IMG/VR virus record: IMGVR_UViG_3300025705_000005
Span: 1 to 64,000 of that record
From: a virus
Strand: one strand, 5' to 3'
Length of the DNA stretch: 64,000 bases
Position 1 is the first letter of the stretch, and each line of letters opens with the position of its first letter. Below, piece by piece: positions 14,342 to 17,426 of this stretch. The notes under the pieces were generated by a model. That model made no database searches. It was not told where the DNA came from and saw nothing but the letters and a program-made list of their open reading frames with translations. Position numbers and translations under genes: made by a program.

Positions 14342-15976
14342 TTACTGAATTCTGTTTAATGAATCTACATATACTTTACCATAGAACTCACCTCTTAACA
14401 TCTTCTTCGCGTAACGTGTCATAACACCTTTACGTGGAGTGAAGTTTTTAGGGTCATATACTAAAGGAGTCATAATTAACGGAATGTATGGTGCGTAAAC
14501 CGCTCCAGTTTCAAGGAATTGTGTTCCTCTGTAACCCATTAATATTACGTTCTCTTTCATGTAAGGATTCTTATAAACTTGGAATCTACTATTCAATGAA
14601 CCAACTTTTGTTACACCAAACGCAAATTGAGCATCACCATTGTCAGCTGAACTAGCATAACCTGGGATAGATTCAATTATTGTTGCAACATCTGGAGATA
14701 CAACTAAGAAATTAGCTCCACCTCTTAATGTTTTTTGGTGAATAGAGTTAGATACACCAGCAATAACTGTTCCAAGTGTTTGAAACCAATTTTGTTGGTT
14801 GTAAGCAGATGCGGCAACTTCAGCAGCACCCATTGGTGCAAATCCGTTTCCGTCCCATACTCTACCAGCTTGCGCTGACCAGTATCCAGTTGATTTAGCA
14901 TCTTGCATTAACATATCTAAGATTTCAAAATCGATTTCTTGCGAAATGTATTCTGATAACATAGATGTTAATTCAGCTTCTGCATCAATTGAATGATAAG
15001 CGTTTAAATCCTGTGCGAATTCAGGAGTCCATTGTGCTTTCAACTTACGTGTCTTAGCAACAATTGGTAAACTCTTCATTTCAACGTTCAATTCAGGAAT
15101 ATCCAAATCAACACCTTTATCTTCAAAGTCACCTCTAGAGATATCATCTGGTTGTTTGTGGTAAGCTACTTTAACGGTATCAGTTAAGATAGTCGCTGCT
15201 GTTACTTCAGCTACAAACGTTATATCACCATTATCAGCGATTGTAGTATACTGTGGGTATTGGTTAAGAATAGATGTGGTTGAACCAAGTAATCTAAATC
15301 CTCTAATTCCCTTATCATCTGCATTTTCAAATTCAGATGCATCGATTGTAATTTTACATACTGTTCCACCTGCTACCATTTTAGCTGCGTTAGATGCAGA
15401 AAATGCCGTGTCATAGTTGTAATCTATTGGTGATAATGCACCAGTTGCAAAAGTATTTGCAGCAGCATCTGCACCAATTGAATTGTCGCCTGTAGCTACA
15501 TCATTCAATGAGTATCCAAATCTACCTGCACCATACAAACCACCTGATGGGTCTGAAGTAGTTTCAGTAATACCGAATACAGAATCAGCTTGTGAATCTT
15601 TTCCAGAACCACTAGCGAATCCAGCTTGGTTAGTACCATATTTAAAATCTAGATAAAATACTAGACCTGATGGTAAGTTCATTGGTTGTACTGATACGAA
15701 ATCTTTTGCTACGATTTCACTAAAGATTCTTCTTACTAATGGTAATGCTACACCTGCCCACTCTTCTGAGTTTGCTGTAGTACCAGTAGAAGAAGCTTCT
15801 TTTACTAATTGTCTTGCTTGGTTTTCTAAAAGAGTTGCAACGCCTGCTTTTTCAACATCGTTTGCTATTCCTTCTAAAAGACCGGTTTTCTCCCACTTAC
15901 CAGCTAAAGCTCTTGTAGCTTCAGATAGTCTTGCAGTATGAGAAGAACCTTCATTTAAAATGTTTTTTAAATCCAT
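14342..15976 (-). CDS. T4-like major capsid protein (gp23)
   Basis: LLENQ, PLVRR, VQPMNLPSGLVF, AKTRKLKAQWTPEFAQDLNAYH, YAPYIPL and FTPRKGVMTRY; AGGAG SD; likely maturation site LVKE60/A61. Confidence 0.96.
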   Translation of the reverse strand: MDLKNILNEGSSHTARLSEATRALAGKWEKTGLLEGIANDVEKAGVATLLENQARQLVKEASSTGTTANSEEWAGVALPLVRRIFSEIVAKDFVSVQPMNLPSGLVFYLDFKYGTNQAGFASGSGKDSQADSVFGITETTSDPSGGLYGAGRFGYSLNDVATGDNSIGADAAANTFATGALSPIDYNYDTAFSASNAAKMVAGGTVCKITIDASEFENADDKGIRGFRLLGSTTSILNQYPQYTTIADNGDITFVAEVTAATILTDTVKVAYHKQPDDISRGDFEDKGVDLDIPELNVEMKSLPIVAKTRKLKAQWTPEFAQDLNAYHSIDAEAELTSMLSEYISQEIDFEILDMLMQDAKSTGYWSAQAGRVWDGNGFAPMGAAEVAASAYNQQNWFQTLGTVIAGVSNSIHQKTLRGGANFLVVSPDVATIIESIPGYASSADNGDAQFAFGVTKVGSLNSRFQVYKNPYMKENVILMGYRGTQFLETGAVYAPYIPLIMTPLVYDPKNFTPRKGVMTRYAKKMLRGEFYGKVYVDSLNRIQ

Positions 15977-16003
15977 TTTTTTTCTCCTATTAAGTTTATT
16001 AAT

Positions 16004-17005
16004 TTATTTTAAACCAGCTAGCTTTTTCCATCTAGCGGCCATATCATTGCCCTCAGAAATTATTTTCTTTGGTGCTGAACTTTGTGTTGCTTTAGAAGCA
16101 TAACCTTCTTTTACAACAGTTCTTTTCTTTTTCGAAACATTTAAGTTTTCTGCTAATGTTGAGAATACCAATTTCACTTCTCTTACTGATGAAGTTCTAT
16201 CGAAGTTTTCAAGTACTTTTACTTTTTGTCCTTCGTTTAAATCAAAAGTTCTGAATAGTTTGTTAGTATAAAGTAACTTAGCGTTCAACAGATTTACTTC
16301 ATTGATAGTTTTTTGTAAACTTTCAATTGTTAAATAAGCTTCTTCTAATTCATCTTCAACACTTTCTTCTTCAACACTTTCTTCTTCTGATACTTCTTCT
16401 TCTGAATCATCTTCCATTTCTTTCAAAGTTCTAATAACTTCGTCTAAATCGATTTCTTCTTCTTCGTCCATATCATCTTCTTCAGCAACAGCTTCAGCTT
16501 CTTCTGATTCGTAAGTTTCTTCAGCTGATTCTTCATCATCTTCAGATACTTCATCATCAGCCATTTCAGCTTCTAATTCAGCGATTACAGATTCTAAATC
16601 TAAATCATCTTCATCCATATCTTCTTCAGATACTTCTGAATCTTCTTCAGATTCTTCTTCTTCGGTTACTTCTTCATCTTCTGATTCGTAAGCTACTTCA
16701 GCAGATTCTTCATCTTCTTCGGTTACTTCTTCTTCAGCAGGTACTTCTTCTTCACCTTCTAAGTTATCTTCAACTTCTTCTTCAGAACCCATTTCCGAAT
16801 CCATGTCAGCTTCCATTTCTGGTGCTTCCATTTCATCTTCCATTTCATCTTCATCAGCTTCTTCAGCTAATTTTGCAGAAATCATTGATTGTAACTTAGG
16901 TGTGAATGCTTCTTCTAAGGCTAACTTAGCGTTTGCTAGAGCAGTTTCTTTAACGGCTTTAGCATCAGCGATAGCTTCAGATAACAAATCTTTTCTATTT
17001 GCCAT
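16004..17005 (-). CDS. Prohead core scaffolding protein (gp22-like)
   Basis: Very acidic coiled-coil protein directly upstream of the capsid gene; AGGAG SD; many hydrophobic-x-E sites. Confidence 0.8.
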   Translation of the reverse strand: MANRKDLLSEAIADAKAVKETALANAKLALEEAFTPKLQSMISAKLAEEADEDEMEDEMEAPEMEADMDSEMGSEEEVEDNLEGEEEVPAEEEVTEEDEESAEVAYESEDEEVTEEEESEEDSEVSEEDMDEDDLDLESVIAELEAEMADDEVSEDDEESAEETYESEEAEAVAEEDDMDEEEEIDLDEVIRTLKEMEDDSEEEVSEEESVEEESVEDELEEAYLTIESLQKTINEVNLLNAKLLYTNKLFRTFDLNEGQKVKVLENFDRTSSVREVKLVFSTLAENLNVSKKKRTVVKEGYASKATQSSAPKKIISEGNDMAARWKKLAGLK

Positions 17006-17112
17006 AATTATTCTCCTAAATTGTTTTTGGAAATAAGATTATTATAAATCTTAATAGATATTATTTAACTAATATATTTAATCACCTATTGGAAAGTGAT
17101 ATTTTTATCTTC

Positions 17113-17120
17113 TATAAATA
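17113..17120 (-). promoter_or_regulatory. TATTTATA putative late-promoter element for scaffold-capsid
   Basis: Recurrent intergenic octamer, ~108 nt before the scaffold ATG. Confidence 0.6.
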
Positions 17121-17159
17121 GTGATGTAAAATTGAAAACACTAAAAAAGTGTTAACTAT

Positions 17160-17426
17160 TTATTCTTCGTTTTGTCTACGTTGCCAATCAGCTCGGACTG
17201 CTAGTTGCATTTTCCTTCTTTTTATTGCTGATGGTTTTAGATATTCTTTACGTTCTTTTAATTCTTCAAGCTTTCCACTTTCTTTCATTTTTCTTTTAAA
17301 TGCTTTTAAAGCTAGTTCGATATTTCCGTTAACTACTCTAACTCCAGTATAACAACCTGGAATCTCCATATCTTCTCTTCTAACTTTTTTGTAAGGTTTT
17401 TTAAATTTGTTTTCGTTATCTTGCAT
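17160..17426 (-). CDS. rpsU: Phage-encoded 30S ribosomal protein bS21
   Basis: VRVVNGNIELALKAFKRKMKESGKLEELKERKEYLKPSAIKRRK is the bS21 signature. The start is placed at ATG 17426 (MQDNEN...), downstream of the hairpin; a later start (MEIPG) is also possible. Confidence 0.9.
   Translation of the reverse strand: MQDNENKFKKPYKKVRREDMEIPGCYTGVRVVNGNIELALKAFKRKMKESGKLEELKERKEYLKPSAIKRRKMQLAVRADWQRRQNEE

Follow-up and report, generated by a model that had tools for sequence, protein, structure and literature searches.

A bS21 without Tyr54 among the head genes of a marine phage family and its possible part in Shine-Dalgarno-led translation

No ribosomal protein is encoded by viruses more often than bS21. 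The gene considered here lies on a 74.5-kb virus contig of IMG/VR (IMGVR_UViG_3300025705_000005; 33% G+C, about 41% complete). The first 64 kb of this contig form the stretch that was analysed, hereafter called the window; the contig of this source phage is labelled G000 as a whole and L038 in its 65–74 kb part past the window. The bS21 gene is preceded by a leader without a Shine-Dalgarno (SD) site and is followed by a scaffold-like gene and a major capsid gene, each of which has one. In Bacteroidota, the probable hosts, the anti-SD tail of the 16S rRNA is held by bS21, bS18 and bS6, and the ribosomes ignore SD sites. The question raised by the locus is what SD sites are good for in such a phage and whether its bS21 has a part in their use. 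Our preferred answer, to which we give a probability of roughly 0.4, is that the phage bS21 allele makes SD-blind Bacteroidota ribosomes SD-reading late in infection and so boosts the SD-led mRNAs of high-copy virion proteins. Bacteroidia keep an anti-SD which they do not use, and the phage family described here offers a concrete and testable link between this fact and the role of phage bS21.

Shine-Dalgarno sites around and beyond the head genes

The features of the head region on which the argument rests are the following.
14342..15976, minus strand: gp23-type major capsid protein (PF07068, E = 1.4e-77)
15984..15988, minus strand: AGGAG SD site of the major capsid gene, 7-nt spacer
16004..17005, minus strand: acidic scaffold-like protein of 333 amino acids, between bS21 and capsid, D/E-rich in composition
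17013..17017, minus strand: AGGAG SD site of the scaffold gene, 7-nt spacer
17160..17426, minus strand: phage bS21 gene, 88 amino acids (PF01165, E = 1.4e-12; TIGR00030, 51 bits)
17427..17447, minus strand: A/T-only leader of bS21, no SD site (pairing free energy, dG, +2.9 kcal/mol)
22305..24182, minus strand: portal gene, late, with an SD-less leader (phrog_213, E = 8e-67)

Nearly all genes of the contig are on the minus strand, where gene calling followed by curation gave 62 starts in G000. Along the direction of transcription, the order is TerL, portal, prohead protease, head polyprotein, bS21, the acidic scaffold-like gene, the gp23-type capsid gene and PhoH. TerL, portal, protease, bS21, scaffold and capsid all fall within 14.3–25.8 kb, which places bS21 inside the head/packaging block. 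An earlier note, made from the letters of the window, had put bS21 directly upstream of scaffold and capsid, and both the gene order and the profile matches bear this out. The scaffold-like protein has no Pfam or PHROG match. The capsid protein is 60% identical to that of phage Mel-JY01 and 55% identical to that of Flavobacterium phage immuto. The source phage is a member of a marine T4-like myophage family and is widespread, the window stretch having been found in 16 marine or seawater studies, six of those runs being RNA libraries. No tRNA genes are present in the window.

The SD sites were scored by pairing with the anti-SD ACCUCCUU at positions −18 to −3 from the start codon. A dG of −4.4 kcal/mol or lower was counted as an SD site, and the sequences upstream of internal ATGs served as the control. 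By this measure, 26 of the 62 curated genes have an SD site, compared with 12% of internal ATGs (binomial p = 3e-9), and AGGAG, GAGGA or a similar 5-mer precedes 11 of the 62, compared with 2% in the control (p = 4e-8). The enrichment over the internal-ATG controls is thus 3.5- to 9-fold. When the leaders of the source phage and its relatives are taken together (438 leaders), the proportion of G rises from about 11% nearby to 43–47% at positions −11 to −8, and the SD 5-mers end 6–7 nt before the start. The SD signal is genuine and its spacing is canonical. All SD sites listed in the earlier note were found, namely AGGAG before the genes starting at 15976, 17005, 8498, 42486 and 52129 and GAGGA before those at 7977, 9721, 22244 and 59634; past the window, there are also a GAGGA before 64181 and an AGGAG before 70869. 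The leaders that it had described as SD-less are so for bS21, the primase (46649), the endonuclease (47105), the gene at 29194 and the portal (24182), but the gene at 31528 has a weak AGGA (−4.0 kcal/mol).

The comparison of orthologous leaders was limited to distinct leaders from relatives at 41–96% protein identity. An SD site is present in all 17 capsid leaders (AGGAG, CGGAG, AAGGAG or AGAGGAA), in 10 of 10 scaffold leaders (AGGAG or AAGGAG) and in 8 of 8 fibre leaders. The counts are 0/18 for portal, 1/10 for TerL and 0/12 for the gene g26759. The bS21 gene itself, for which a leader without SD had been claimed, indeed lacks an SD site in all 24 distinct leaders from relatives (0/24).

The sites are unevenly divided between gene classes. 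In G000, they precede 20 of the 37 virion-module genes and 6 of the 25 other genes (Fisher p = 0.035; Mann-Whitney on dG, p = 9e-5). Two large relatives, G402 (176 kb, 97% complete) and G405, have 46–47 of 66 proteins in common with the source phage at about 56% identity. In the former, SD sites occur at 21 of 45 genes (47%) in the late/structural region and at 14 of 127 (11%) in the early region (p = 1.6e-6), a bias which persists among genes of at least 150 amino acids; in the latter, the respective counts are 17 of 42 and 12 of 89 (p = 0.001). The early genes have a flat G profile without any SD signal. Comparing anti-SD pairing between gene classes, which had been proposed as a check, therefore gave a bias towards late or virion genes in all three genomes.

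Since capsid, scaffold and fibres have SD sites and portal and TerL do not, the presence of an SD site tracks how much of a protein is needed. SD sites lead the virion genes with high-copy products (capsid, scaffold, fibres and some baseplate genes), whereas low-copy late genes (portal, terminase) are SD-less. The original description of the structural genes as SD-led is right in that the sites are concentrated in virion genes, but they track copy number and not simply the division between structural and other genes. Early genes and the bS21 gene have host-style, A/T-rich, SD-less leaders.

The phage bS21 and the proposed switch

The product of the open reading frame (ORF) 17160–17426 (minus strand) matches PF01165 with 47.5 bits (cut-off 27) and the TIGR00030 equivalog model with 51.1 bits (cut-off 28.95), and its best matches in a PDB sequence search were bS21 chains. 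On this profile evidence, it is a true bS21. In the protein, a basic N-terminal extension of about 28 amino acids precedes the S21 domain, and Arg78 and Trp81 lie in a C-terminal helix. In an AlphaFold2 (AF2) model with a mean predicted local distance difference test score (pLDDT) of 75.5, there are helices at residues 36–50, 52–58 and 65–87, so that Arg78 and Trp81 are placed on one long C-terminal helix, and the N-terminal extension is modelled with low confidence. A Foldseek search of this model against the PDB gave nothing significant, as one would expect of an extended protein whose shape depends on rRNA. The extension (17343–17426, minus strand; residues 1–28) is basic, is conserved in the family with the consensus MQxNxxKKPYKKIRREDMEIPG and is absent from bacterial bS21. 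A tblastn search with the phage bS21 against 50,697 phage records gave no match at E ≤ 1e-3, probably owing to the low-complexity filter and the short query, and the nearest clusters in the ESM Atlas were all viral bS21 without host information.

Alignment by HMMER to PDB chains pairs Arg78 with Tyr54 of 9i5v_9 and 7jil_z (the Flavobacterium johnsoniae chain). A MAFFT alignment with 30 Flavobacteriaceae bS21 gives the same column, in which all 30 hosts have Tyr within the motif KAxY[IV]Q. The two methods agree with the earlier proposal that Arg occupies the Tyr54 position, and the comparison with host bS21 by which it was to be checked is thereby provided. Taken to mean the lack of any aromatic residue, the proposal would mislead, as Trp81 at +3 had been overlooked. 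The C-terminal motif of the family is A[VI]RA[DEQ][WY]RR, with the Arg nearly invariant; at position 54, the source protein has Arg, as do 40 of the 44 loci in its bS21 clade, and the other four have Tyr. The net charge of the segment after KPS is +4 (pI 11.4) in the source bS21 and +5.5 on average (pI 11.3) in the family, compared with +1.7 (pI 8.8) in the 30 hosts. A weakly basic C-terminal domain is a Bacteroidia-specific trait of bS21 (Jha et al. 2021, Fig. 6B, PMC7797042), and it counts as lost here because the C-terminal segment is far more basic than in the 30 hosts. Judged from sequence, the phage protein has therefore lost both Bacteroidia-specific traits, Tyr54 and the weakly basic C-terminal domain.

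The proposed switch would act as follows. Phage bS21 would be made late, from an SD-less mRNA, and would replace host bS21 on the platform of the 30S subunit. With Tyr54 replaced by Arg and with a strongly basic C-terminal helix of a non-Bacteroidia kind, it would no longer steer the 3′ tail of the 16S rRNA into the bS18/bS6 pocket. The SD–anti-SD helix could then form as in other bacteria, which would lift the translation of SD-bearing mRNAs. We infer every step from incorporation into the 30S subunit onward. Tentatively, the outcome may be seen as a private translational channel setting the dosage of high-copy virion proteins, with the early genes and bS21 itself relying on the SD-independent mode of the host.

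The use of SD sites by other phages is largely in line with this proposal, with the exceptions given in the next section. In the cultured Flavobacteriia phages immuto, 11b, phi38:1 and P2559S, SD cores precede 3–7% of genes, which is below their own internal controls (9–18%). Immuto, the one of these whose whole genome was searched for bS21, has none. The 248-kb T4-like contig G224:C1 encodes a bS21 ending in ...AVYIQK..., with a host-like Tyr54, and is SD-less: an SD site was found at 2 of 44–47 genes, depending on which of two gene callers is used, and its capsid gene is also without one. This contig (positions 15001–55000 of which are L148 and L149) sits in a 1.7-Mb Flavobacteriaceae bin. 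Its TerL, portal, protease and capsid genes are T4-like, and it probably represents the genome of a jumbo phage that was binned together with bacterial DNA. In a set of 42 distinct loci of phage bS21, SD use was 12% where the bS21 has a host-like [YF][IV]Q helix and 38% where the helix is divergent (Mann-Whitney p = 0.011, uncorrected for phylogeny).

Transcription signals bear on the timing of bS21. Those that flank the gene are the following.
17486..17493, minus strand: TATTTATA, candidate late-promoter motif 67 nt upstream of the bS21 ATG
17448..17484, minus strand: 10-bp hairpin (17456–17484) with a run of seven U (17448–17454), between the late-type motif and the bS21 leader
17128..17153, minus strand: weak hairpin with a U-rich tail just past the bS21 stop codon
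17113..17120, minus strand: second copy of TATTTATA, upstream of the scaffold gene

The motif TATTTATA, usually in the form ATATTTATA, occurs in the window in 18 copies on the minus strand and in none on the plus strand, mostly in gaps upstream of minus-strand genes. The copies are at 62541, 50997, 46662, 42549, 29216, 27605, 26798, 24221, 22296, 17493, 17120, 14272, 13560, 12288, 8066, 8037, 6193 and 2747, with none past 62541. A similar strand bias is found in the relatives (32 vs 4 copies in G402, 18 vs 2 in G405), and the motif is a candidate late promoter. Expression of bS21 looks late, in agreement with what Chen et al. observed in their phages (PMC9723584). The region 17427–17513 folds with −17.5 kcal/mol in ViennaRNA, and the 3′ arm of the hairpin together with the U-run (...GGTGT and a T-run) is kept in the bS21 leaders of relatives. 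A simple terminator scan flagged neither of the hairpins flanking bS21, so that it is the ViennaRNA folding and the conservation which speak for them. Transcripts started at the motif may miss the 5′ arm and read through, and those started further upstream would terminate. The ends of three RNA-library contigs at 17464–17470 hint weakly at a 5′ end. Capsid, scaffold and bS21 are covered by contigs from four RNA libraries, a record of presence and not of expression level or relative depth.

The Bacteroidota-type promoter TAnnTTTG showed no orientation- or position-specific enrichment. Another element, (T)TTnGTATAT(T/A), is common to several gaps before early-type genes (upstream of 73309, 71801, 70270, 69649, 67357 and 46649; the window stretches that bear it are 46649–46680 and 24190–24225). 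It may serve as an early or middle promoter, and its sequence departs from the TAnnTTTG consensus of Bacteroidota.

The host and the competing explanations

On the host, whose confirmation the earlier note had put first among its checks, there are pointers to Bacteroidota but no direct link. A protein of G405 (L151:1489–2226, minus strand) has a signal peptide, a cohesin domain and a type A sorting domain of the type IX secretion system (T9SS), the last matching PF18962 with 33.6 bits and TIGR04183 with 45.2 bits; its gene is part of an accessory stretch at the end of the contig. In G407 (L177), an ORF of 1176 amino acids in mid-contig matches TIGR04183 with 53.5 bits. Both proteins are apparently built for export through the T9SS of the host. 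This system is confined to Bacteroidota and close allies. Apart from Mel-JY01, the nearest cultured capsid relatives are phages of Flavobacterium and Rhodothermus. The sister clades of the phage bS21 still have Tyr/Phe54, the signature of Bacteroidia, which makes Bacteroidota the probable source of the gene. Taken together, these features suggest that the host is probably a member of Bacteroidota.

A BLAST search with 19.9 kb against 401 Flavobacteriaceae genomes gave no link by clustered regularly interspaced short palindromic repeats (CRISPR) or prophages. The candidates that arose were rejected as low-complexity matches to the scaffold gene or as chance-level 30-nt matches, the best of which (29/30, in G012) has no flanking repeats. 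A search of genome contigs gave one match, to a 1.6-kb contig from a Flavobacterium bin; the contig resembles phage DNA placed in the wrong bin and is a weak host pointer. A bin labelled as uncultured Flavobacterium (G001) contains three short contigs with a phage-type bS21 (L006, L007 and L008; C196, C197 and C207), one of which is 95% identical to the window; they are likely to be phage DNA co-binned with the bacterium.

Several points weigh against the proposed switch. Three residues past Arg78, on the same helix, nearly every member of the family has a Trp or Tyr, and this conserved aromatic residue could take over the stacking on A1534. The correlation over the 42 loci is uncorrected for phylogeny and was drawn over loci without assigned hosts. 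A sister subclade with Tyr54 (...KYSEW...; L074, L078, L079 and L081) is equally rich in SD sites (48% vs 44%), and three groups of loci with C-terminal helices that are Tyr-less or otherwise divergent (L137/L138, L121/L122 and L125) are SD-less. A strict rule by which the absence of Tyr54 means richness in SD sites is ruled out by the same loci, the subclade with Tyr54 and Trp on the one side and the SD-less ones on the other. The host was deduced indirectly, with no CRISPR match, and the closest cultured capsid relative, Mel-JY01, was recorded on Microcystis and has SD sites and a Tyr-less bS21. The 5-mer SD sites of the phage are modest (−5.6 to −7.3 kcal/mol), while the effect in F. johnsoniae was shown with an SD below −13 kcal/mol (rpsU). 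Sampled host rpsU genes have the extended SD AGAGGAGGTTAAG (−12 kcal/mol), so a freed anti-SD should boost host rpsU as well, which would counteract the replacement. Finally, bS21 has the same late-type motif as its presumed targets and hence would not be made earlier than they are.

The conserved aromatic residue is the starting point of the explanation that survives best after the proposed switch, although we regard it as rather unlikely. According to it, Trp/Tyr81 stands in for Tyr54, so that the anti-SD is sequestered by the phage bS21 as well; the protein would favour phage mRNAs in some other way, for instance through its N-terminal extension or N-terminal helix, as Chen et al. (2022) proposed, and the SD sites would be read by ribosomes free of bS21. 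Such ribosomes of F. johnsoniae do prefer mRNAs with SD sites (PMC9976891), and their pool could grow late in infection through an arrest of host rpsU expression or through removal of host bS21 by a phage protease. The idea that phages with bS21 might carry a protease of this kind was raised as a speculation by McNutt et al. (PMC9976891). Past the window, the source contig encodes a ClpP-like protease (L038:4710–5357, minus strand), an AAA ATPase (L038:11409–12386, minus strand) and an Hsp20 (L038:7926–8270, minus strand), which are candidates for such a role. The sister subclade that combines Tyr54 with equal SD use also fits this explanation, as does the conserved basic extension of about 28 residues, absent from host bS21. 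However, it does not account for the lack of SD sites in relatives that have a host-like bS21 (G224:C1) or none (immuto), and the basic C-terminal helix, unlike that of every sampled host, also speaks against it.

It is unlikely, in our opinion, that the host already reads SD sites, whether as a bacterium outside the SD-blind Bacteroidia or as a lineage that departs from them in this respect, so that their pattern is an ordinary tuning for abundant proteins and bS21 is a take-over or ribosome-supply factor matched to the type of host. The lack of a direct host link leaves room for this, and Mel-JY01, recorded on a cyanobacterium, has Lys at position 54 and SD sites at about 30% of genes across the genome. 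Among SD-using bacteria, Arg or Lys at 54 in a basic C-terminal helix is the normal state (E. coli-type alignments), and published host predictions for phages with bS21 cover several phyla (PMC9723584). The host evidence speaks against this explanation: T9SS sorting domains occur in two members of the family, the capsid lineage is otherwise tied to phages of Flavobacterium and Rhodothermus, and the Tyr/Phe54 of the sister clades makes a Bacteroidota origin of the gene probable. Early genes without any SD signal would also be unexpected in an SD-reading host.

A role of bS21 unrelated to the choice of start sites (packaging into the head and injection, counter-defence against translation stalling, or a mere top-up of the protein), with its co-occurrence with SD sites being a coincidence of lineage, appears very improbable, since the family as a whole combines a conserved SD-less bS21 leader with conserved SD sites at the capsid and scaffold genes and the loss of two Bacteroidia-specific traits is specific, even though packaging and counter-defence were raised by Chen et al. 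(PMC9723584), the gene sits among head genes and the correlation between bS21 type and SD use has its exceptions.

Comparison with known systems

We found no paper in the literature in which a phage bS21 is put forward as a switch for SD use. Among phages related to the source phage, immuto and Mel-JY01 have the same T4-like order of the head module and 29–31 of 66 proteins in common with it at about 41–43% identity. Unlike the source phage, immuto has no bS21 and avoids SD sites (cores at 4% of its genes). In Mel-JY01, a bS21 gene occupies the same locus; its product has Lys at 54 and lacks an aromatic residue close by, and the SD sites are spread over the genome. Incorporation of a phage bS21 into ribosomes was shown for the T4-like marine myophage HTVC008M of Pelagibacter, whose protein enters E. 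coli ribosomes (Mizuno et al. 2019, PMC6375957). This bS21 stems from an alphaproteobacterial host that uses SD sites, and its sequence is not close to that of the source phage.

The freshwater Bacteroidetes phages with bS21 described by Chen et al. (2022, ISME Commun, PMC9723584), for which late co-expression and replacement of host bS21 were put forward, resemble the source phage in that the gene lies within a block of terminase, portal, prohead protease and capsid genes; their predicted host belongs to Bacteroidota, as that of the source phage probably does. In all 61 of their phage bS21, position 54 is occupied by Tyr or a different aromatic residue, and a host-like action was argued for (PMC9723584). 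The source phage differs by Arg at 54, by a strongly basic C-terminal helix and by conserved SD sites on the neighbouring high-copy genes; the study of Chen et al. contains no analysis of the SD sites of phage genes (PMC9723584).

A close parallel is provided by mutants of F. johnsoniae (Jha et al. 2021, PMC7797042; McNutt et al. 2023, PMC9976891; PMC13000457, 2026), which concern the same position of the protein. In this species, the SD–anti-SD helix clashes with the C-terminal helix of bS21; the path of the SD–anti-SD helix in other bacteria runs between the two helices of the protein (PMC13000457). The substitution Y54A in bS21 raised the output of strong-SD reporters 1.7- to 3-fold (PMC9976891); for Y54A or the C-terminal deletion (deltaC), the increase with strong-SD reporters was 1.7- to 5-fold, and SD-less reporters were largely unaffected (PMC9976891). 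The logic is the same as that proposed for the phage, a weaker contact between the C-terminal helix and the 3′ tail of the 16S rRNA freeing the anti-SD and favouring mRNAs with SD sites.

There are differences as well. The effect in F. johnsoniae comes from cellular ribosomes that lack bS21 and concerns one gene, rpsU, with an extended SD below −13 kcal/mol, whereas in the phage family a natural allele would act on many mRNAs with SD sites of 4–6 nt. A phage bS21 gene without an SD is also the opposite of host rpsU, whose extended SD, a common feature in Flavobacteriales, serves autoregulation. Many Flavobacteriaceae have two or three bS21 paralogues (L178–L191), one with the extended SD AGAGGAGGTTAAG and a second type (...KHRNVKVMQNLR...) without it, and a few of the paralogues have His at 54 or Tyr54 followed by Trp four residues later. 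If the proposed switch is real, the phage family would be a clear case of a virus re-specifying the selection of start sites by swapping one ribosomal protein, and its bS21 would be the natural counterpart of the engineered Y54A and deltaC ribosomes.

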